Positions 48,900 through 64,000 of a stretch of 64,000 nt of DNA are shown one piece after another (position 1 is the first letter of the stretch; each line of letters starts with the position of its first letter). Below the pieces are notes generated by a model that saw nothing but the letters and a program-made list of their open reading frames with translations, had not been told where the DNA came from and searched no databases. Both the position numbers and the translations under genes were made by a program. Source of the stretch: Schmidtea nova (Eukaryota); NCBI GenBank assembly GCA_044892505.1, contig CM097884.1, positions 70,680,001-70,744,000 on the forward strand, written 5' to 3'.

Positions 48900-51800
48900 T
48901 TTAATTATTTAATTATTTCTTTCTGGGGACACACCATTGATTTTATTTTTATATATTTGAATTCGTCTCATCAATCGGCATACACTCATACCAATTTCCC
49001 CCACCATATGTTGATTTTCAATTTTCTTAATTTTTAATTAATGTTTTTGTATTTTAATTAATTTGCAATTTTTTGTGTATTTATTAATATCTACTTAATT
49101 ATTTAAATTTTCACTTTAAATTTGAGTCACTTCTGTCCAACCCCAACAATTACCTTCATGAGTATTGTTCTATAGTGATGTTTGTCGGTACGGGCTCTAT
49201 TCTGGGGTGATCTGTTTGAGGTTCCATTCGATGTGAAAATACTTAGGTATTCGGCTTAAATTATTTTTACCTAAATTAATTTTCTTTAAAAGTGGTTCAA
49301 AATATAAAAGGAAAAATATAGAATCTATTTTCCGAAATAGACACAAATTCTACAAAAATGGGTAAAAATTCCATAAATTCGATAAAACCACTATTCAAAT
49401 ATCGGTGAATTAACCCTAAATGTTAGAGTAAGATGGTTTGCGTTAATAAGGGTTTTCGGGTCAATTTCTTATTTTGAAAGTTCAATTTCGTTTTTTATAA
49501 GGTAAATTTCGTACATAATTTAAATTTCATTTTATCCCTATGATTTTTCAAAATAATATGGAACGGGAGCAATCACTTAACAACCATGAAAATCCGATTT
49601 TCTTATTGATAATAATCAATCGAACCTTGCTAACGAAACGGGAAATGATATAATAAATCAGGATGAAGACCATCTATTCAACTATTAACAGCGAGAAACA
49701 GAAGGCAATCCTATAATAAAATGGATGGAAAGCGTAGATCGCGGATTATTCAAGCATGTAACAATGTTCAATCTGTAGCTTCAATAGTTGCATATGAAAA
49801 TTACAAAATAGCACCATATATAGTATCACTGATACCTTTAAAAAGACCAGAAGAACTGTTGCTATTCCTATAGGTGGATTGAGGCACAGTAAAGTAAATG
49901 ATGAAGTAAATGAATTTATAAGAAATCTTGTAGACAACGATTTTATCCTCTCGTTAAGACGCATTGAAGCTACTGTCTTGAATAACCTTGGCATTAACAT
50001 TTATAATCCCATTATTCACTAGAGCCTTAAAAATTTTTATTATTCATTGAAGCTGATAAAGCCTATTCCTCAAAGAAGGAAGATGAAGACGCTATTGCAA
50101 TGAGAAGACTTTATGCTAAAAATCTTTTAAACCTTGGTGAAAATTTTTCACCTAAACAAATTATTTTTCTTGATGAAGTGCGTTTCAGTATAAGTCTTAG
50201 AATTAAACATGGAAGAGCACCAGTAAGAACGACACCAACTACAATTGTCATAAACATCAGATCTAGAAATATTTATGTATGCTGCGCAATGACAAGGTGC
50301 GGTAAGTTATTAAAAAAAGTAAGTAATATACCATAAAAAGAAATTGAATTTCAATATTATCTGAATTCGATCTTTGAATATTTACGAGAAAGAAATCTTG
50401 ATAATTATGTTGTCATCATAGATAACATAGGATTTCACAAATGTTCATCGAAAAGAACTTTGTTGGAAGCAAATAGACACATAGTGATTTATTTACCTCC
50501 GTATTCACCTTCATTAAATCATTTTGAGGAATCATTTTCCAAATGGAAAAATGTTGTTAGAAGAGCTAATTCTACTAATGTTGAAGATTGGATGGTGGCA
50601 TTTGTAGATGGATGGAATAGTATATCAATAGAAGATTGTGATGGCTATTATAGGCACATGAAACGTGAATTACAAGTTGCAATGGAAAACCGTCCTTTCA
50701 ATTAAAAAATTACGTTGTTTATTTGAATTTTTTATTTTTAACAAAAACAAAATATTTATACTCAATATTTTTTTATATATACTGTTGGGCAAAAACTGCA
50801 AATTGTTTTAATAAAACGGTAACCACATAAGTAGAGAGAGCGCAAGATCCAATTTTAACACAAACATTCATTAAAACCCGACGTGATTAAGTGGAAAACA
50901 CCAAAAAGGTGAAATGGACTCAAGCACATCAACCAGTAGAGAACGCGCTAGCTTAGAATTTGTAAGTCTTTACACTGAAACCTCGAGAAAAATGAAAAGT
51001 TGTCAAGAGAAGAACATTTGAAAGTTAGAATAGGCGGAAAACCCATTGAAAATGCCCATAAAGAACAGAATTGTGTCATAAAACTTCAGTGCAGAAAAAA
51101 TTAACGAAATTTTAGAAGAAAATTGTGATTTTACCATAAAATTTCACATTAAAGATAAAAAGAACTAATTTTGATCGAAATATCGAAAATTAAATCAAAT
51201 TGAATAAATTTTGATTCAAAAATAAAAATTTTGGATTAAAAATAAATTATTTATGATTTATAAAAATTATTACGTAAAAATGTTGATTTAATTCGGCGGA
51301 AAATCATTAGAATTGATTTAGAAAAATTAAAAAGAACATTCTAAAACAATTTGTTTTACTGCATTAGTGAAGGTAACACACAAGCGATGGTATATATACC
51401 GCCATCAAAATGGCAATAGGCAGAATTTGTGTGAATTTTTCGTTAAAAATTTTAATTTAATTTTGAACAGAAGATTTTGCTGAAGATTTCATTTGAGCTC
51501 GCGTCAGATAATTTTGAACAGAAGATTTTGCTGAAGATTTTATTTGAGGTCGTGTCAGATAATTTGGAATCAGAAGTTTGCGGAAGAATTTGTTTGAACG
51601 AGAATTTTTCGAAAGAATTTGTCTAAAATTTTTATCAAAAATTTAAATCTTAGTCTGAACCAGAAATTTCGGAAGAATTGATTGGATGTAAGTGTCATTT
51701 TCTTGTTCGGTGCGGGGTCATTGAACATCATGCCCCTTTAATTACCCCGTACCGGTAGTATTTTATTTTGTATTTTATTTTGTTATTATTTTTATATTTT

Positions 51801-53027: not shown

Positions 53028-54192
53028 TGTTGGATGACGAGGGAAGACTCATAAAAACATTCAAAGTCAATAAGTATTATCATATCGGCAACAATAGATA
53101 CAGAATAAATATCTATCTGGAAAAATAACTCCCATCAATCGTCTGTCACAGTCATCATCCGTCTCAATATCCATCTCAATATCCGTCTCAAGTGCCCGTC
53201 TTAACCATCTCAATCCATCAGTAGAAATCCCTTTCGAAAAATAACTATAAACTATCTAAAACCCTAATTCACTCTACCAATCTCTGTGATCATCAATCAA
53301 CTATTGTCTGTCAATCTAAATATTTTAAATTATCTATGTGATCCGAACATTCTAAATTATCTGCATGATCTAAACATTTTAAATTATCTATGTGGTCATC
53401 TATCTATCAAACCCTTCGACTATGAACAATCCAGACTATCATCCTCATAAAAAATTGATCATGCATGAACTTTTAATATTGATTTTATTAATTTAGGATT
53501 TTATTTTATTTTTATTTTTATTAATATCAATATAAGTATTCAGTTAGATATTTCGAGATAATTATTATACCAAAACAGAATTTACTTCTGAATTGTTAAA
53601 TGTCAAATTTCCCCATTTGGGAATTTTCATAGAAAACATATCACTGCACACTATTATACAGTTCAATATATTGCTTATGACTTGAAGTCTTGTTCAACGT
53701 GCACAAAGTATTTAAACTTTAAAAAATTTGTATGTTAATTATTTCAAATGTCAAATTTTATAGTGTTAATAAAAATGTATATAGGAATAAATGTCAGGTT
53801 TTAGTGAATGCATGCCAAATTTTAGTATATAAGGAAAAGGCAATTCAGGCAAATTGCCATAAAATCTTATTTTTAAATTTAGCGTAATAGCTCTCTTAGG
53901 TACAAATCCTAAAGAGCGTTTAAAATAAGCCAGTTGGCTAAACAAAAAATAAGTTAAATATTTTTAAAGATTGCTAACTTTTGAAATCTGCACAAAATTT
54001 AAAGGATCTCAAAATCTGAAAGAGTTTGTAGTAGAAAGATTTTAAAGTCGTTGACAATTTTGTAAATTGTAATTGGTAAATTTTGTTATTTGAATAAACT
54101 TTATAAACAAGAGTCTTTTTGTCTTAATTATTTACATAGGAACCACCAACCCCCAGTTGAGATTTCAAGTATACATATTTGAGACCTCAACA
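53028..54192 (+). repeat. 5' LTR of giant retrotransposon (3' end firm, 5' end uncertain: TGTTGG 53028 or TGTTGA 52587)
   Basis: Ends ...CCTCAACA, 2 nt before the PBS. Contains ~12-bp tandem repeats (53157-53218) and 3x27-bp repeats (53315-53395). Confidence 0.55.
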
Positions 54193-54194
54193 TT

Positions 54195-54212
54195 TGGTGC
54201 CGCGAACCGGGA
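54195..54212 (+). promoter_or_regulatory. Primer binding site, tRNA-Phe-like
   Basis: TGGTGCCGCGAACCGGGA, 15 of 18 identical to the canonical tRNA-Phe PBS TGGTGCCGAAACCCGGGA as I recall it. Confidence 0.8.
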
Positions 54213-54443
54213 CAATAAAATATTATAATATCAATCGGGGGATAGGAATTGCGATCAGAGGGATAGTGTAATATATATTGGGAAAATATATCTATATTTA
54301 AATATTAATTGACCAAAATTAAACTCAAATTAAAGATATAAACACACAAGGTTAACAATAACAAAATAGGTAGAAAGATAAAGAAAGTCGATATAAAATC
54401 ACCTGAAATATTGCACAATTTAAGAAAAAAAGTAATTTACAAG

Positions 54444-55430
54444 ATGAGTAATAACAGTACAAGCAGCAGCAATAGTGGAAATAACAGTCATACAGAAAAC
54501 ACCAACAGTAATCATAATTTTATAAAAACATTACCAATAGAATCATATAAAGGAGACCCTGAAAAGTTCGACGACTTTTTTGCCGAAATCGCACAATAGG
54601 CAGAGGCTTGTGGATGGACAACAAATGAATTAAAACAACGAATCCCATTATATTTAAAGGGATATGCATTACAAGCATATAATAATTTAGCATGCAAAGG
54701 CATCAATTACAATGAATTAGTAAAAAAGGCATTTGGTGCAGGAGATCACACTAGTAGATTAATTGAGGATCAGTTTTGGAACGGAATCCAAAAATATTTA
54801 TACAAAGCATTAATTACAATAGAGTATGAAGACTTAAATGAGTTAGTTCAAAAAGCAAAACGTATTGAAGCAATACAAAGAGATAGATTTAAACCAGAGG
54901 TAGATGCTGTAGAAATTGAAAGACAACCTGAGGTAAAGCCTGAGTTGAGAAATAAAGATGATAGCATCCCTTGGGAAGAAATGAAACAATTATATTTGAA
55001 TTTTGTTAATAATAGACGAAGAGTTAGTCCAAGTAGAAGCCAATCAACTGAAAACAGGGGAAGGTTTAACAGTCCAGGAAATAAAAATTTCGATAATAGA
55101 AATAATTTTAAAGATAGTTATAAAAGGAATAATAATAGAGATAGTTTTAGAGACAATCGTTTTGATAATGATAGAGACAACAGAGACACTTTTAGAGACA
55201 GTCGTTCTGGTTATAACAGAAACAGTTACAATGGATACAATAGAAATAATAGAGATAATCGCTTTGAATATAATAGAAGAGATAATAGATATAGAGATAA
55301 TTCGAGAAATAGACAAGATAGCCCGGTAAGGTGAAATATGTATAATAATGATGGTAGAGATAAAGTAAATTTTAATGGACAAATAAAATGTTATAATTGC
55401 CAGAGGTATGGGCACTTAGCAAAAGTATGC
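54444..55430 (+). pseudogene. gag: Gag: capsid-like region, R/D/N-rich linker, CCHC knuckle, with two in-frame stops (TAG 54597, TGA 55332)
   Basis: One frame from ATG 54444: YKGDPEKFDDFF..AEACGW...PLYLKGYALQAY...DQFWNG, then CYNCQRYGHLAKVC at 55389-55430. Confidence 0.8.
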
Positions 55431-58400
55431 AATAAACCACGAGCTGGTTCACCAATTGGAGTAAGATTTAAAAATGAGCCTGAGATAAAACAGGTAAATA
55501 GTGCTGAGCTTGAGTCAGCAAATAAAGAGATAAATAATTTAAGAGAAGAATTAAAAGAATTTAAAATTCAATATGGAAGACTCATTGAGAGAAAACTTGA
55601 AATGTCTATAAATGAATTTAGCACTTTTACAAATGAGGTAGATATTGATAATGATGAGTTAAAAGAAATTAGAGAAGCAGATGAAGTATTTCTTACAGAA
55701 GAAAATAGACAAAAAGAATTAATAGAGGAATTTAAAGAGGTATTGTATAAGCAACCATTTGATGACAATGAAACATTAAGAGTAATCAATAAAATACAGG
55801 TTAATGGGATTGATTTAGAGAGACTTAGAAATTTGATACCAATGATGGTAAAGAGACAAAATGTAACGAGATTATTTGAATTAGAAATAGAAATAAAAGA
55901 GATGTTGAAATGTTATGGAGAATATATAAGAAAAAATGAAAAATTGCATGAAACACTAAATGTAACGATTGAATTAAATGATAATTATTTTTTTAGTATT
56001 AAACACAAGATGCATCCTTGCACTAAAGTGAGTAAATTAAAACGAATGGCAAGAGCCAAATGGCCAGGAACCATAGGAGAGAGAGATGTAATAAAATTAT
56101 ATTTTAATGGAATAGAACTATTGAATGACGAATATTTAATTGACTATGGGATAAACCCAGTAAGTGATAATATTGTGATAGCTACAATAGAAAAGCAAAC
56201 GATAAATGAAATAATGACACCAGCACCGTCAGTTGAGTTGAGTATAAATGAGGAAAATGATTTTGACAGGTTATTCAGAACATGGGATAAATCACCTAGT
56301 GAAACAATGAAATCGGTAACGGGGGAAGAAATTATATTTAAACCTATAGATGATAAATATAGTAAACTACAAGAAACAATAGAAAGAATAGCTGACGAAG
56401 CTAAAACAAAAGATGCAGAAACATCAAAGCGAGGTAGAGGAAGACCTCGAAAATCAGAAATTATAGAAAAATCAGAGAATAGAAAGACAGCAGAACGATT
56501 AAGAGAGATTGCAAATCAACAAAGACATGAACAATCAGAGTATGAAGATGATAATAATGAACTTAACAAAATAAAAGAAGTAATAAAAGCAATGAATATT
56601 AAGCTATTTCCAGAAACAAAGCCAACAGTACTAATTGAAAATATAACTGAAAGGATGATGTTAATTAAAAAGGATACTAAAGAACTAGCCACAGAGGAAG
56701 CAAATGAAAAAACAGTATTAAAAATCCTGTTTAATACAGGGATAGATAAAGATAAAATAATAACGGCCATGGCATACTTGGCCGCAAGATATAAAAAGCT
56801 CATAAAGGAAAATCCAAAAGAGCAATTAGAAAAAGTAGCAACAATGATGTTTAAAAGATTGAAAGAAGAGGCAATACCATGGATAAAAAGGAAAGGAGGA
56901 TGGAAAGTATTATATGATAAAGATATGACGAATAAAGAGAGTGATACAGATGATGTAATAAAACAATTAATAAAGAAAGCAACAGTAAAACCAAAGACAG
57001 AGAGTAAATCGATAACCTCCATAGTAATAGTCATAATCACCTTGTTATTAGATTTAATCAAGGGGGGCAATGCAATGGTAGCATATGATTGTCAAAATCC
57101 AAAGTGGGGACAAAAATACTCACTGTTAGATGTTGAAAATTGCCCTGAAGCAAATCCAACTAAATTAATCATGTCAGAGCCTCAAATATTCCATGTTTAT
57201 CAAGAATCAGACTTTATTCATACAGAGGCTAAAGAGTGCATAGTAAAGTATCAGGAGGAAGCATATATATGTCATGTTGGGGCAAGAACAGTGTTAAAAC
57301 CTACGTGGACACCCGAAGCAGTAATATTGTCGCCAATAGAGTGTGAAGATGCATTTAAAACAAAGAAAGTAAAATATAGCGGTCATAAAGGAATAGAACT
57401 AGAAGCAAGGATAGGAGCAAAAATGAGACAAGATGTGAATGTCGTGGGATGGACATCAAAAGGAGGATATTGTGAAGGAGGAGAATATACAATATGGGGC
57501 GAAAAACTGAGTAATGTTGTAGTAAGGAGACACTACATGGTAGAACTGAGAAAGTTCAAAGCATCATTCGACAGCAGCTCAAAGAAAATGATGATATACA
57601 AATTTTGTACATTAGAGGAATCTTATTGCGATACAGGAGAATCAATGCTAATATACAAAATAGATAAATACGATTGTCAGTTAACAAAATTAAAATCATT
57701 AAAATTTAGGGAAATCAAAGGAAAACAGTTCACAGAAGTAGACTCAAAAAGGGTGAGGGATCAAAAAAGGAAAACAACAATTGTACAAGAAAAAGATACA
57801 CCTACAATATATATGTCAGAATCTGAAAACGAAGCAATGAGGTTCGTTAGTAAAAGGAAAAGTGTAAAATGTGGTAAGGAAATAATACAAACTAATTATG
57901 AAGGGATATACATAAGCAAAGAAGAAGTCAAAGATGCAAAACAAAAAGTAAATAAATTCGACGTCAAACTTGCATCATACTTCAACAATAAAATCGATTT
58001 TTTCTATCATAACCAACTAGTACAATTAGATAAAGTATATCAATCAACAATTATGAGCGATTGCAAACTCAACAGAGAAATATTAAGGACAAAAATGGCA
58101 GTGGCGGTAACAAACCCAGATCTAATGGCACCAATAATCTTCTCAGAAGAAGGAACATTTGCAAGGATAGTAGGAGAAGTGATACAGACATTTCAATGTA
58201 AACCTGTTAGTGTATCGTTAGCAACAAATAATCAGTGCACTAATGAATTACCGGTAATATATAAAGGAGAAAGGGTATACCTTCAACCAATTACTAGAAT
58301 ATTAACAGAAAAAACATATATACCGAGAAAAATAGAAAAATGCACTAACTTATTAGACCCATTATACAAAATAAATGACGAAATGTGGATATCTATGTCA

Positions 58401-58913
58401 GATAGAAAGGAGGCAATGAAACCACTCAAATTAGAACTCATAGAGCTAGAAAAAAGATTAGAGTTCAAAGAAATCAACGATATGGACAGCAATGGTATAT
58501 ATACGAGAGAAGCTATAGAAAGTGCAAGAAAACATATGCTATTTCCAAACGAAAAAGAACGAGTACTTTCAATAATGGTTAACAGAGTTATCGAAGGAAG
58601 TTACGGAGGAAATTACAACTTTGATGTGTTATTATCAAAAGAATACTTCAAAAAAGTAGCATATAAAGTACTATATAGCATATGGGGATACTTTGCAGTC
58701 CTTGGAAACATGTTTTCTACAATCTTAGGTATATATTATACGGTTGCATTACTAAAAATGATATGTTCTTCTCTAGTATCACTGAGACAGTTAAAACAAG
58801 TATTTGGAAATTCATATAAATTATTAGCATGTTTGTGCCCATTTATAGCTAAATATCTTATTACGGCGAAACACGACAAGGAAATACGTTTAATAAAAGT
58901 CCAAAGGAATTGA
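55338..58913 (+). CDS. 1191-aa continuation of ORF1: zinc knuckle, ubiquitin-like domain, AT-hook, Bcl-2-like domain, signal/TM, envelope-type protein
   Basis: Ubl ~55953-56192 (KLYFNGIELLNDEYLIDYGI). KRGRGRPRK at 56427. BH1-like LFNTGIDKDKIITAMAY, BH2-like PWIKRKGGW. Hydrophobic SIVIVIITLLLDLI. Cys-rich ectodomain from AYDC (57075) to a C-terminal TM. Confidence 0.85.
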   Translation: MYNNDGRDKVNFNGQIKCYNCQRYGHLAKVCNKPRAGSPIGVRFKNEPEIKQVNSAELESANKEINNLREELKEFKIQYGRLIERKLEMSINEFSTFTNEVDIDNDELKEIREADEVFLTEENRQKELIEEFKEVLYKQPFDDNETLRVINKIQVNGIDLERLRNLIPMMVKRQNVTRLFELEIEIKEMLKCYGEYIRKNEKLHETLNVTIELNDNYFFSIKHKMHPCTKVSKLKRMARAKWPGTIGERDVIKLYFNGIELLNDEYLIDYGINPVSDNIVIATIEKQTINEIMTPAPSVELSINEENDFDRLFRTWDKSPSETMKSVTGEEIIFKPIDDKYSKLQETIERIADEAKTKDAETSKRGRGRPRKSEIIEKSENRKTAERLREIANQQRHEQSEYEDDNNELNKIKEVIKAMNIKLFPETKPTVLIENITERMMLIKKDTKELATEEANEKTVLKILFNTGIDKDKIITAMAYLAARYKKLIKENPKEQLEKVATMMFKRLKEEAIPWIKRKGGWKVLYDKDMTNKESDTDDVIKQLIKKATVKPKTESKSITSIVIVIITLLLDLIKGGNAMVAYDCQNPKWGQKYSLLDVENCPEANPTKLIMSEPQIFHVYQESDFIHTEAKECIVKYQEEAYICHVGARTVLKPTWTPEAVILSPIECEDAFKTKKVKYSGHKGIELEARIGAKMRQDVNVVGWTSKGGYCEGGEYTIWGEKLSNVVVRRHYMVELRKFKASFDSSSKKMMIYKFCTLEESYCDTGESMLIYKIDKYDCQLTKLKSLKFREIKGKQFTEVDSKRVRDQKRKTTIVQEKDTPTIYMSESENEAMRFVSKRKSVKCGKEIIQTNYEGIYISKEEVKDAKQKVNKFDVKLASYFNNKIDFFYHNQLVQLDKVYQSTIMSDCKLNREILRTKMAVAVTNPDLMAPIIFSEEGTFARIVGEVIQTFQCKPVSVSLATNNQCTNELPVIYKGERVYLQPITRILTEKTYIPRKIEKCTNLLDPLYKINDEMWISMSDRKEAMKPLKLELIELEKRLEFKEINDMDSNGIYTREAIESARKHMLFPNEKERVLSIMVNRVIEGSYGGNYNFDVLLSKEYFKKVAYKVLYSIWGYFAVLGNMFSTILGIYYTVALLKMICSSLVSLRQLKQVFGNSYKLLACLCPFIAKYLITAKHDKEIRLIKVQRN

Positions 58914-59523
58914 AGAAAGGCAATTATTGGTAGATGATGAAAACGATGAGGAAATAATTAAAGCGCATATATCACATGAAGGAAATGTACCACAACAAGG
59001 ACTATATGAAAACCAAAGAGAACAACTAAAAGAGCTACAAGAAAATATAGAAATCAAAATTCCTAGAGAAAACAAGAATTGTCACTGTGAACCTAAAAAG
59101 ATATATGGTTGTTATAACTTAGAAGTCGAAACAATGGAACGATTAGATGCAGCAAACGAAGCAAGACCAAGACTTAAAATAATTGTAAACAATATAATCA
59201 TAAATGCATTAGTAGATACAGGAGCAGCAACATCATTAATTAGAGAAGATCAACTGACAGATGATCAAAAAAGAAATATTATGAGCACAACAGATAAAGT
59301 AGTATCATTATCAGCACATTGTATTCCACTAAAGGGAGACATAGAACTAATAGTCGAAACACCAGAACAGGTAATAAACCACATATTTAAAGTGGTGCAA
59401 GAATGTAATAGCATATGTATATTGGGAATCGATATACTCAACAAGTTAGAAAATTGCATTATAGATTTAACAGATAATACGATAAAGAAAAAAGCAATTA
59501 AACATAAATCCAAGTTCACATAA
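58897..59523 (+). CDS. pol: Aspartic protease region of pol
   Basis: ALVDTGAATSLI and ILGIDIL motifs. Same frame as RT, separated only by TAA at 59521. Confidence 0.9.
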   Translation, partial: KSKGIEERQLLVDDENDEEIIKAHISHEGNVPQQGLYENQREQLKELQENIEIKIPRENKNCHCEPKKIYGCYNLEVETMERLDAANEARPRLKIIVNNIIINALVDTGAATSLIREDQLTDDQKRNIMSTTDKVVSLSAHCIPLKGDIELIVETPEQVINHIFKVVQECNSICILGIDILNKLENCIIDLTDNTIKKKAIKHKSKFT

Positions 59524-62500
59524 GTTGTTGCATTAGAAGCATTTGAATTGGAATATGAATGCGATCATATAATTCCCTTAAAAGTTAACATCAAAAGTGA
59601 GGACACTTTTATTTTTGAGCCAGAAACGGCAATTATACAAAATCAGAATATAATGCTAACCAATGAATGCGTAATTCCGAAGAAGGGAATAATACCATTG
59701 AGAATAGCAAATTATGAAAAAGGTAATGTTAAAATACACAAAGGTACGAAATTGGGAAAATTATTCAAAGGTGAATTAGAAAAAACGTACGAAGTCAGTG
59801 AGATAAGCGTGATGAAGGATAACGGCAAGGGAGTAGTCGAACCTAGTAAGATAAATAATATAAAATCATATGATAAGGTAAAAATTAATAATGAATACTT
59901 AACATTAACACAACAAGCACAACTACAAATATTGATAGATAAATATAGTGATGTTTTTGCAAAACATGAATTTGATCTAGGAGATACCGATATAATCAAA
60001 CATGTAATAGATACAGGTAATGCGAGACCAATCAAACAAAGACCATACAGCGTACCATATAAGTTAAGAGAGGAAATAAAACGACAAATAAAAGAACTAA
60101 ACGATGCAGGTGTAATAAAACAGAGTTTTTCACAGTGGGCATCACCCATTGTACCCGTTAAAAAGAAAGATGGAGAAATAAGAATGTGCATCGATTATCG
60201 CAAATTAAATGATGTAACAGTAAAAGACTCATACCCTTTCCCAAAAGCACAAGAGCAATACGATAAACTTAGGGATGCTAAGTATTTTTCAGTCATTGAT
60301 GCCAATAAGGGGTATATGCAAATTCAAATGGAAGAAGGGGATGCGGAAAAAACAGCATTTGTTATTGAGGATGGTTTATATGAGTACACACGACTACCTT
60401 TTGGATTAACTAACGCACCAGCTACATTTCAGCGTTTAATGAACACAATATTAGTAAATGTACAACACTGCGCAGTTTATATGGATGATATATTAATATC
60501 ATCAAAAACATTTGAGGAACATTTAAAGGATATAACAAATGTACTTGAGAGACTAAGAAAAGCAAGGATAAAAATTAAACCAACCAAATGTAAATGGGCA
60601 GAACCATCAGCATTATTTTTGGGGCATATAGTTACAGTTGAAGGGATAAAACCAAATCCAGAAAAAATAGAAGTCGTAAAAAAGTTCCCGATACCAAAAA
60701 CAGTGCAACAAGTACAAGGGTTTTTAGGTTTAACAGGCTATTACCGTAAATTTATACAAGATTATGCAAAGATAGCATCACCTATAATAGAACTAACAAA
60801 GGGAATTAAAACAAAAGGGGAATGCAAAGATGTGTTAATAGTCCAAGAAATTAACAATAAAGTTAACAAGATACAAAAGAAGTGGACAAAAGAACATCAG
60901 GAAGCATTCGATAAACTAAAAGAAAGATTGATAACAGCACCAGTGTTAAGGTACCCAGACTTCGAAAAACACTTTATAGTAATGACGGATGCCAGCGGGA
61001 AAGCCGTAGGAGCAGTCTTAGGTCAAGAGGAAGAGAAAGGGAAAGATTACGTAATAGCATATGCTAGCAAAACATTAAAAGGAGCACAGCTGAGGTATTC
61101 AACAATAGAGAAAGAATGTTACGCAATAGTATTTGCCCTAAAACAATTCAAACCATACATATATGGAACTGAAGTAATAATAAGAACGGACCATAAACCA
61201 TTAGAAGGCTTATGGAAACATAAGGATACATCAAGTAGACTACTAAAATGGGCAATGAAAATACAAGACATTCACTTGAAAATTATATATAAACCAGGTA
61301 GAATAAATAAAAACGCAGATGCACTGTCAAGAATACCAGAATTAGGAGCACTTGAAATATTTGCACTAGTAGCAGAAAAGCCAATCGATATATATGAGGA
61401 ACAGATGAAAGACCTAGAAATCAGCAGAATAAGAAATGAAATCAGAAAGGAAAGTAATTCAAAGTATAAAATATCAAAGAGATTAGTAGTAATAGAGGAT
61501 TTCAGTGGTAAACAATTAATAGTAGTACCTCAAAAATTAAGACAAATACTTCTATTACAATATCACGATGGAGCATTAGGAGGTCACTTATCATCTAGAA
61601 AAACAGCAAGTAGATTATTACAAAAATATTACTGGGAAGAGTTAAAGAAAGATGTTAAGAGATGGTGTAATGCGTGTACAATATGTGCAACAAGAAAAAA
61701 TACAGGTACTAAAACAAAAGCGCCGTTACATCCTATTCCAGCAACAACATCACCAATGGAACTATGTGCAATGGACTTCCTATGTAAATTACCTACTACA
61801 ATTAATGGGAATAAACATATACTAGTATTTAGTGATTATTTTACTAGATGGGCAGAAGCATTCCCAACAAAAGATGAAACAGCAGAAACCGTTGCTAAAT
61901 TACTCATAGAAAAAATAATTTTTAAGATAGGTACACCTAAAAGATTATTAACAGATAAAGGAACAAATTTTACTAGCGAATTAATAAAAAGGGTAGCTAA
62001 CATTTTTAACATGCAAAAGATCAACACAACAGCGTATCACCCTCAAACTGATGGGCTAGTAGAAAGGTTTAACGGGACATTATTAAGCAGACTAGCGGTC
62101 TTTGTAGGCAAAAATCAAAATGATTGGGACGAATACGTAAGTCAATGCACATACATCCATAATATCACTCCAAATGAAACAACAGGGTATTCACCGTATT
62201 ACTTAATGTTCTTAAGAGAACCAGCAACACCAATAGATACAATTTTTGAACCTCGAGTATCACAATATTTAGACGCACCAGACTATGTCACACTAATGCA
62301 GGAAAAACTGCAAGAAGTGTATAAAGTAGCTAATTTAAAAGTCAAATTTAGACAAGAACAGTACAAAGCCGACTATGACAAAAATAGTAAACCACATAAC
62401 TTTAAAGTAGGTGATAAGGTTAGACTTATGTCACCACAAGTAGGAAAAGGAAAAACAACAAAGCTAGCAAGACCATATAAAGGTCCATACGAAGTAGTTA

Positions 62501-63420
62501 AAGTAATAAATGAGAATCTACACCTACAAAAGCATAAGAATGAGGATCCAATAGTAGTACATGTTAACAGATGCAAATTAGCAGAGGCAGAGGTCACGAT
62601 AGATAAACCTCACAAGTATAATCTTAGGTCTCAGAACAAGCTAATAATATCGGCTATCTTCTTAACAATCATAACAGTTGTTGGTTCAACCAAAACACTA
62701 GAATTTGACAAATTATTAATAAAAATATCAACAAACGAAGTCAGAGTATTTATCATAAACAGGGGAGTAATCGACATATACATGCAAACAACAGATAAAG
62801 AAAATCCAAAGATGATAAAAAGAAAAGAGGACAGTACAACCAAGGAAATCGAAAGAGGAAACTATGTTAACTTCACAAAACTAACACCTAATACAATATA
62901 CAGAATCTGCATACAGAGAGACACAGATACAACAATATGGAGATGCAAGAGAATAAAAACAGAACAACTACCCAAAGATCCAAGTATAACAAAAAAGACG
63001 ACAATAACACCAGATAGAACAGAAAGCACAAGAACAAAGACAACGACAACAAACAATTTATTAAATATCACTGCACATATAGACAAAAAAACAACATACA
63101 CTAGAATAACAAAATTCCAAAAACAACAACAAAAACAAAAATATATCAAAATAAAACAAGGAAAACCAATAGTTATACATAACTTAGAGGAATTACAAGC
63201 ATTTCAAAAAAAGGATAAAAAGCCACATTGGCCATATTATGTAATCACAGCATCGGTAATAACATTAGCAGTCTTAGCTTTAGTAACTAGCACACAAATA
63301 TACAAAAAGTACAAATGGAAAAGGCAGCGGTATCGGAGCCGACTGGTCAAAGATGTACCAGGACATTTCCATTTGGGTAAATACATACCTGGCATATACA
63401 CATTATCAACACAAGTATGA
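59524..63420 (+). CDS. pol: Pol: RT, RNase H, integrase, plus a C-terminal membrane-protein extension
   Basis: WASPIVPVKKKDGEIRMCIDYRKLN, LPFGLTNAPATFQ, YMDD (60478), TDASGKAVGAVL, TDHKPL, HHCC finger, MDFL/TDKG/VERFN, GPY motif. Frame stays open ~265 aa past the integrase. Confidence 0.96.
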   Translation, partial: VVALEAFELEYECDHIIPLKVNIKSEDTFIFEPETAIIQNQNIMLTNECVIPKKGIIPLRIANYEKGNVKIHKGTKLGKLFKGELEKTYEVSEISVMKDNGKGVVEPSKINNIKSYDKVKINNEYLTLTQQAQLQILIDKYSDVFAKHEFDLGDTDIIKHVIDTGNARPIKQRPYSVPYKLREEIKRQIKELNDAGVIKQSFSQWASPIVPVKKKDGEIRMCIDYRKLNDVTVKDSYPFPKAQEQYDKLRDAKYFSVIDANKGYMQIQMEEGDAEKTAFVIEDGLYEYTRLPFGLTNAPATFQRLMNTILVNVQHCAVYMDDILISSKTFEEHLKDITNVLERLRKARIKIKPTKCKWAEPSALFLGHIVTVEGIKPNPEKIEVVKKFPIPKTVQQVQGFLGLTGYYRKFIQDYAKIASPIIELTKGIKTKGECKDVLIVQEINNKVNKIQKKWTKEHQEAFDKLKERLITAPVLRYPDFEKHFIVMTDASGKAVGAVLGQEEEKGKDYVIAYASKTLKGAQLRYSTIEKECYAIVFALKQFKPYIYGTEVIIRTDHKPLEGLWKHKDTSSRLLKWAMKIQDIHLKIIYKPGRINKNADALSRIPELGALEIFALVAEKPIDIYEEQMKDLEISRIRNEIRKESNSKYKISKRLVVIEDFSGKQLIVVPQKLRQILLLQYHDGALGGHLSSRKTASRLLQKYYWEELKKDVKRWCNACTICATRKNTGTKTKAPLHPIPATTSPMELCAMDFLCKLPTTINGNKHILVFSDYFTRWAEAFPTKDETAETVAKLLIEKIIFKIGTPKRLLTDKGTNFTSELIKRVANIFNMQKINTTAYHPQTDGLVERFNGTLLSRLAVFVGKNQNDWDEYVSQCTYIHNITPNETTGYSPYYLMFLREPATPIDTIFEPRVSQYLDAPDYVTLMQEKLQEVYKVANLKVKFRQEQYKADYDKNSKPHNFKVGDKVRLMSPQVGKGKTTKLARPYKGPYEVVKVINENLHLQKHKNEDPIVVHVNRCKLAEAEVTIDKPHKYNLRSQNKLIISAIFLTIITVVGSTKTLEFDKLLIKISTNEVRVFIINRGVIDIYMQTTDKENPKMIKRKEDSTTKEIERGNYVNFTKLTPNTIYRICIQRDTDTTIWRCKRIKTEQLPKDPSITKKTTITPDRTESTRTKTTTTNNLLNITAHIDKKTTYTRITKFQKQQQKQKYIKIKQGKPIVIHNLEELQAFQKKDKKPHWPYYVITASVITLAVLALVTSTQIYKKYKWKRQRYRSRLVKDVPGHFHLGKYIPGIYTLSTQV

Positions 63421-63541: not shown

Positions 63542-64000
63542 ATGTACAATAGCAATCAACCCGACAGACAATCAAATAGACAATTCAGTCAGCACCCAAA
63601 CAAACAATTCAAACAACACAACCAACCCAATCGTCAACACCCATACAAACAAAGTCAATCTCACAATAAATCGTTTGAAAAGTACGATCAAATGTTCAAA
63701 CAAAACGAGCAACCCGCATCTTATCAAAAATACACCTGTTTTATAAACAAACTGGGAAACAGTTTTTATAAAAATATCCAAAACAAAATCAGTACAGACG
63801 GACAACCTATCACCATAAGAAATTTCCCTAACCAAGTCTGCATACCCAATGAAATGAAGACAGACATCGAAGAGAGAGAAATGAGTATAATCAAATTTAA
63901 TGATGCTCGAAGAGTCAAACTCCGAGAACTCATTGGAAGTTTCGATCAATATAAAAATGTGGATAAAGCGGTGGCAGAAGGTAAAAAAGTACCCCACCAG
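63542..64000 (+). CDS. Additional ORF downstream of pol, 3'-truncated by the window (at least 153 aa)
   Basis: ATG at 63542, no stop to the window end (hence absent from the ORF track): MYNSNQPDRQSNRQFSQHPNKQ...AEGKKVPHQ. Confidence 0.7.
   Translation, partial: MYNSNQPDRQSNRQFSQHPNKQFKQHNQPNRQHPYKQSQSHNKSFEKYDQMFKQNEQPASYQKYTCFINKLGNSFYKNIQNKISTDGQPITIRNFPNQVCIPNEMKTDIEEREMSIIKFNDARRVKLRELIGSFDQYKNVDKAVAEGKKVPHQ

Follow-up and report, generated by a model that had tools for sequence, protein, structure and literature searches.

Why does the integrase reading frame of a planarian retroelement run on past the enzyme, and does the extension encode a functional surface protein? We examined this question in a 64,000-nucleotide stretch of the Schmidtea nova genome (contig CM097884.1, positions 70,680,001 to 70,744,000), which we refer to as the window. 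An initial annotation had proposed that a type I membrane protein module is fused in frame behind the integrase and cleaved from Pol as a second surface protein, acting in attachment, receptor interference or immune decoy. Every motif quoted in that annotation lies at the expected place in the integrase frame (59524 to 63420), and the module has the following parts.

62641 to 62688, forward strand: internal signal-like hydrophobic run, predicted ER entry (hydropathy 1.81; counterpart run in all lineages)
62689 to 62970, forward strand: predicted FN3 domain with two Cys and one sequon (AlphaFold2, Foldseek, pN/pS)
62971 to 63165, forward strand: Thr/Lys-rich stalk of variable length, neutral (pN/pS 0.9 to 1.2; alignment)
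63166 to 63228, forward strand: conserved juxtamembrane segment (91% identity between subfamilies A1, that of the window, and A2)
63229 to 63303, forward strand: predicted transmembrane helix (hydropathy 1.94)
63304 to 63420, forward strand: basic stop-transfer and cytoplasmic tail, C-terminal S-T-Q-V, then TGA (sequence; 78% identity to families C and D)

Hydropathy reaches 1.6 in no 19-residue window of the 1,298-aa frame apart from the signal run and the helix, which together with the motifs confirm an in-frame membrane module behind the integrase. The type I layout (signal, one helix, basic stop-transfer) fits both hydropathy and anatomy, with signal cleavage predicted only. The beta domain carries the motif L-x-P-x-T-x-Y at 62881, which in its strict form appears by chance in 0.45% of 2,000 shuffles, and cysteines at 62908 and 62944. 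Two details of the annotation needed amendment. Both sequons and the stalk are present, but NFT (62869) belongs to the FN3 domain rather than to the stalk, and this sequon is missing from families C and D in the alignment. The basic stop-transfer sequence KKYKWKRQR is also present, but the tail continues for 29 residues beyond it, to S-T-Q-V.

The module is hosted by a 13.5-kb Ty3/gypsy element in which Pfam matches place a gag region with a CCHC knuckle, a Bcl-2-like domain, a class III fusion glycoprotein (env), protease, reverse transcriptase (RT), RNase H and integrase in that order.

53028 to 54192, forward strand: 5' LTR, TG...CA (99.9% identity to the 3' LTR just past the window; 4-bp target duplication)
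54195 to 54212, forward strand: primer-binding-site-like 18-mer, beginning TGG (sequence)
54342 to 55433, forward strand: gag region with CCHC knuckle, two in-frame stops in the window copy (Pfam and ORFs)
56706 to 56903, forward strand: Bcl-2-like domain immediately 5' of the env signal (PF00452, E 1.5e-6, 29.1 bits, below the cut-off of 31.4 bits; 33.4 bits in a second search)
57012 to 58780, forward strand: class III (gB/Monjiviricetes-type) envelope with signal, ectodomain and membrane anchor (PF24664, E 3.8e-87; hydropathy)
59158 to 59451, forward strand: aspartic protease; in the window copy a frame change lies upstream and a stop downstream (PF00077, E 5e-8)
60157 to 61269, forward strand: reverse transcriptase and RNase H (Pfam)
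61525 to 62631, forward strand: integrase with zinc finger, core and C-terminal GPY region, last residues Y-N-L-R-S (Pfam)
63542 to 64000, forward strand: start of ORF2 behind a T-rich TAG acceptor-like site, continuing past the window (DEDDh-exonuclease-like in relatives)

The LTRs, the primer-binding-site-like sequence, the target duplication and the order of protease, RT, RNase H and integrase are those of a Ty3/gypsy LTR element. A class III env between gag and pol, in single frames of 3,057 to 3,082 codons, is the arrangement of GAG-ENV-POL gB-type errantiviruses, and a BCL2-like domain before an in-frame env is that of Burro. Judged by this layout, the element is a Burro-like GAG-ENV-POL errantivirus. 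No Pfam chromodomain match was found 3' of the integrase at E ≤ 1; the domain at that place is predicted to fold as FN3. Three in-frame stops and one frame change interrupt the window copy 5' of Pol, so that it cannot itself yield the whole polyprotein. Its near-identical LTRs contrast with these four main-frame lesions (53028 to 63420), which may mean either that it moved in trans or that the assembly contains an error. The Bcl-2-like domain adjoins the env signal (56706 to 57080), in the same order in family B, and the env signal could double as the C-terminal membrane anchor of the Bcl-2-like domain once cleaved.

We scored 147 of 905 candidate genomic matches to the module, best first, so this set leans to intact copies. 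There was no stop inside the module in 131 of the 147, and 24 lay within stop-free frames of 3,057 to 3,082 codons. Conservation of the frame in other copies, which the annotation had put forward as a check, held at 73 of 78 stored loci, where the integrase-signal junction is in frame; none of these 73 ends right after the integrase (83 motif matches were counted, five were removed as chance, and some copies are stored twice). Modules of subfamilies A1 (window), A2 and A3 share 78 to 79% identity; the figure for families C and D is 39 to 42%. Families B (3,393 to 3,401 codons) and E (3,232 codons), with RTs 52% identical to that of the window, have modules of their own. The family E module (L133, L135, L136) is shorter, with a helix interrupted by three Arg, an S-R-V end and no visible FN3 motif. 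Separately, the envs of A1 and A2 are approximately 100% identical (pS 0.06; window 57081 to 58655 compared with L037 and L041), whereas pS is approximately 0.3 in Pol and 0.7 to 0.9 in ORF2, which marks these subfamilies as recombinant mosaics.

Relatives outside this genome carry the same arrangement. A search with env returned four long polyproteins (38 to 43% identity), and all four have a signal and a helix behind the integrase. A metagenome scan with the integrase yielded 10 loci, with the module in 4/4 at 47 to 53% identity and 0/6 at 29 to 34%. One element is common to the two sets, giving seven outside relatives in total; the L108 and L109 contigs begin inside Pol, so env is not visible there, and L119 was left out of the locus examination. 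The layout is kept in elements with RT identity of only 52 to 56%, while ectodomain length and FN3 number differ between lineages, FN3 being duplicated in several. In integrase and RT trees, a branch with mixed support (93/89, 56/93, 88 and 98) separates the module-bearing elements from the others; the outgroups are long-branched, some with stops, and the branch does not imply a single origin of the module-bearing group. Searching the S. nova genome with the L110 module gave a single match, in an unrelated frame (E 0.63). L118 has a chromodomain-like region followed by a hydrophobic run at the contig end and is ambiguous. The retroelement proteins P0004 and L118 are of eukaryote type although their records belong to bacterial metagenome-assembled genomes; mis-binning is probable. 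ORF2 (window 63542 onward) is under purifying selection, and RNase_T matches occur in three of the four metagenome relatives (downstream ORFs of L109, L110 and L111); Pfam gave no RNase_T match in ORF2 of the window's own family. DEDD ORFs are known in rotifer LTR elements, according to passages of PMC5408684. We rejected the idea that the tail shifts frame into ORF2, because where the two overlap, the ORF2 frame bears no sign of selection (pN/pS 0.8 to 1.9).

AlphaFold2, run on 62686 to 62970 with 14 natural copies, predicted an all-beta sandwich with a pLDDT of 87. The best Foldseek matches in the PDB were FN3 domains of NCAM2, Dscam, BOC and CDO (E 8e-4, TM about 0.55). In a wide structural search (VIA), the best hit had a Z score of 9.3 and an rmsd of 2.7 over 80 residues aligned to a Dscam FN3 domain, and FN3 domains occupied nearly all 50 rows. 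The predicted domain is thus a seven-strand sandwich matching solved FN3 domains, in agreement with the initial description of a beta domain with an FN3-style motif. A profile built from 12 multi-lineage units matched fibronectin repeats (E 1.2e-4), and a viral fold library returned generic FN3 matches only. The Pfam fn3 model (PF00041), proposed as a check on the fold, matched the window weakly (E 0.06, 14 bits against a cut-off of 25); it stayed below cut-off in all members, with E ≤ 1 in 5 of 14 and, in a second set, 1 of 13. We therefore describe the domain as FN3-fold rather than as a Pfam fn3 member.

The strict L-x-P-x-T-x-Y motif is present in 4 of 10 lineages, at a shuffle rate of 0.3 to 1.1% each. 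With leave-one-lineage-out profiles, 12 of 16 FN3-like units, which were anchored by eye, outscored all 300 shuffles; the remaining four were equalled by 2, 8 (P0002), 10 (L108) and 17 (P0001) of the 300. The family B ectodomain gave no confident AlphaFold2 fold (pLDDT 35), and hhalign found no match between family A and family B modules. Sequence searches for homologues of the module found none in longer proteins or among 1.84 billion protein representatives, a search with the integrase end was likewise empty, and the module was present in 0 of 79 viral contig stretches. A narrow profile run against the PDB gave four weak gp41 rows, which we took as chance. Atlas feature scores of 0.88 to 0.89 to single-FN3 type I proteins are a lead and no more. 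The FN3 fold is widespread and by itself says nothing about function.

A lack of purifying selection on the domain had been named as grounds for rejecting the module, and the natural copies show the opposite: in comparisons between copies of A1 and A2, FN3 pN/pS is 0.32 (95% interval 0.16 to 0.67) and 0.41 (0.19 to 0.96). Corresponding values are 0.27 and 0.18 for the tail (0.14 to 0.27 across tail estimates), 0.9 to 1.2 for the stalk, which is neutral, and 0.01 to 0.02 for RT. A comparison of families C and D, near saturation, gives omega values of 0.30 (FN3), 0.13 (helix) and 0.04 (tail). There is no depletion at synonymous sites of the tail, whose conservation is therefore at the protein level. 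Identity to family C falls from 89% in integrase and 85% in RT to 78% in the tail, 71% in the env ectodomain, 49% in the Bcl-2-like domain and 29% in FN3. FN3 is the fastest-changing folded domain, and the tail is among the slowest parts outside the enzymes. With FN3 at 29% and the env ectodomain and tail at 71% and 78%, the rates fit what would be expected of a binding protein that varies next to a fusogen that is conserved. Between A1 and A2, however, FN3 is 82% identical while env is nearly invariant, so no tight Env-FN3 co-evolution is visible.

The consensus for class I PDZ binding is a C-terminal S/T-x-V/I/L, which the S-T-Q-V end of the window tail fits. Such an end occurs in 6 of 10 lineages (7 of 11 counting family E), compared with 3.7% expected from composition. 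Families C and D end in T-x-C, and P0001, P0002 and P0004 have no motif, leaving 4 of 11 lineages without a strict PDZ end. Because the lineages are related, the count shows conservation rather than independent gains, and binomial P values for it are too favorable. The host genome has 77 PDZ domain matches. The conserved PDZ-type tail adds a putative cytoplasmic function beyond the three roles initially suggested. HTLV-1 offers a functional analogy only: its Env tail binds Dlg1, so that a PDZ-binding tail links a viral surface protein to this host protein (passages of PMC3395148).

At the integrase-signal junction, neither a splice acceptor nor a Met is conserved across the subfamilies and families compared, which makes release of the module from the polyprotein likely. 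In P0001 and P0002, an extra protease sits between integrase and signal. The main frame of L111 contains, at aa 1585 to 1770, a second signal-FN3-stalk-helix unit between two protease domains and 5' of RT; a module in mid-frame between proteases would work only by membrane threading. We propose that the polyprotein would cross the ER membrane four times, with the env signal leading in, the env anchor out, the module signal in and the module helix out. Signal peptidase would free the N-terminus of the module, and the element's own protease would free the integrase from the leftover signal. If true, a retroelement polyprotein is threaded through the membrane in a flavivirus-like manner. We assign little probability to the alternative that the module comes mainly from a spliced RNA and that its in-frame join to the integrase is incidental. 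Two YAG sites near 62625 to 62635 in the window would suit splicing, but they are lost in A2; families C, D and A3 have a Met within the signal, but A1 and A2 have none. The join is in frame in every lineage, and the L111 module lies mid-polyprotein, both of which speak against a separate product. For ORF2, a T-rich TAG lies shortly 5' of the ATG in A1, B1, B2, C and D, and not at the chosen Met in two A2 copies.

The module is very probably a real, selected FN3 membrane protein. As to its function, we favor, at roughly even chances, the reading that it is an accessory surface protein, partner to the class III fusogen, which serves attachment and directs spread to cell contacts. This reading builds on the observed anatomy, frame continuity, selection and group-wide spread and on the predicted FN3 fold; from these we infer membrane threading and a PDZ role. 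The S/T-x-V tail would bind host PDZ scaffolds at junctions or polarized membrane, gathering budding particles there, and the fast-changing FN3 domain would engage the neighboring cell so that Env can fuse. We count against attachment the missing Env-FN3 co-evolution, the degenerate family E module and the four lineages without a strict PDZ end. In herpesviruses, the Ig-like accessory glycoproteins gD and gE/gI serve the class III fusogen gB in binding and junction spread; the likeness to the module is a functional analogy only, with no homology found. Retroelements are described with one envelope gene, and a second conserved surface protein in the Gag-Env-Pol frame would, if true, mean a herpes-like split of binding and fusion. 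Only tentatively do we extend this to a widespread invertebrate retrovirus-like group with two-protein entry (a gB-type fusogen beside a captured adhesion protein of FN3 type whose tail binds PDZ domains), one membrane-threading polyprotein and synapse-like contacts for cell-to-cell passage, possibly into stem cells.

The surface protein might instead stay on the producing cell and alter its signaling, polarity or survival, as a decoy receptor outside and by PDZ sequestration inside, in concert with the Bcl-2-like domain. The presence of that domain fits such a role, as do FN3 domains of cytokine and interferon receptors among the structural neighbors and an unrelated 527-aa ORF of BIR/TRAF-carrying elements that also ends in E-T-F-V; Burro elements, moreover, are rich in apoptosis and ubiquitin regulators (PMC6431247, section 7). 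We nevertheless consider it unlikely, given that the module would be made one-to-one with Gag, Env and Pol while ORF2 stands apart behind an acceptor-like site, that ectodomain length and FN3 number vary, unlike a mimic of one receptor, and that no host donor gene for the FN3 module was found. A surface protein on the producing cell might also mask or remove the entry receptor, preventing re-infection or particle trapping. This would fit the type I anatomy, the fast change of the ectodomain and a tail of sorting type, as well as the Tyr residues and the coexistence of many subfamilies in one genome. In retroviruses, however, receptor interference is usually done by Env alone, and divergence of FN3 beside identical Env in A1 and A2 is unexpected if both must meet the same receptor, making this function quite improbable.

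An anchoring role is more improbable still: the membrane tether and tail would place Pol and budding, and FN3 would be a folding spacer that passes ER quality control. Two observations would suit such an anchor: family E retains the signal, the helix and the S-R-V end but shows no FN3 motif, and the tail is far better conserved than FN3 (78% compared with 29%). Against it stand the purifying selection on FN3, its recurrence in most lineages and its duplication in several, and the polyprotein is already tethered by the env anchor. Non-functional read-through or a decaying captured fragment, finally, has almost no probability left. The neutral stalk and the lack of sequence homologues in public protein sets agree with it, but it has largely been refuted already by selection on FN3, helix and tail, by the confident fold and by elements that keep the layout at RT identities of 52 to 56%. 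Under the attachment reading, the module offers a small, well-folded bait for the receptor of class III Env elements and its tail a handle on host scaffold; young copies are numerous in this family.

Among known systems, the Platyhelminthes GAG-ENV-POL HSV/gB-type errantiviruses resemble the window element in their Ty3/gypsy Pol, gB-type env between gag and pol and length of about 14 kb, as presented in parts of the paper by Chary and Hayashi (PMC13524379). Compared by eye, the env of Smed_errantivirus_3 resembles that of the window (21 of the 25 first residues) and the env of Smed_errantivirus_1 matches family B. C-terminal to the integrase, those parts of the paper treat chromodomains alone, whereas the window has an FN3 module; the word "fibronectin" is absent from its main text, and "fibronectin" and "fn3" are absent from seven supplements. 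The giant planarian Burro/GYPSM1 elements likewise encode one polyprotein with gag, BCL2-like domain, in-frame env between gag and pol, protease, RT and integrase (section 7 of PMC6431247). Burro exceeds 30 kb and has 4,873 aa, compared with 13.5 kb and about 3,070 aa here, so the window element is not of giant size, and no Pfam match to Burro-type BIR, TRAF or ankyrin cargo was found in it. That section on Burro does not mention FN3 or a post-integrase membrane protein.

Like the module, sORF2 of Drosophila MDG1-group retrotransposons is a membrane protein encoded by a retrotransposon and, as proposed for the module, it is linked to direct passage between cells (PMC11952523). It is, however, short, fusogen-like and encoded by its own ORF in elements without Env, whereas the module is an FN3 protein in a polyprotein beside Env. 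Cellular single-FN3 type I proteins (FNDC5/irisin, FNDC4, FNDC9) are like the module in fold and layout, and adhesion-receptor FN3 domains (Dscam, NCAM, DCC) match it with Z scores of 8 to 9; identity to cellular FN3 proteins is just 8 to 22%, and no donor gene can be named. We found no description of an FN3 membrane protein after an integrase in the literature searched; Grohme 2018, Jurka 2007, repeat databases and the deposited models of PMC13524379 lie outside that scope and may bear on it. New findings are a fold predicted with confidence, selection in four families, the seven relatives from outside this genome, the module inside the L111 frame and the conserved PDZ-type end.

Other elements of the genome and window were noted in passing. 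A search with ankyrin for autonomous giant Burro copies returned mostly short frames. Abundant elements (L078 to L089) carry protease-ankyrin, RING-TRAF, BIR-RING and coiled-coil ORFs, with 1,295 BIR candidates; their coiled-coil ORF has the C-terminus E-T-F-V, and another ORF carries a signal and a helix. The window contains a broken Tc1/IS630-like transposase fragment at 50031 to 50705, judged by eye. Two full-length copies of the module-bearing element lie in tandem, 12,588 bases apart (G000:C2:234318056 and 234330644).
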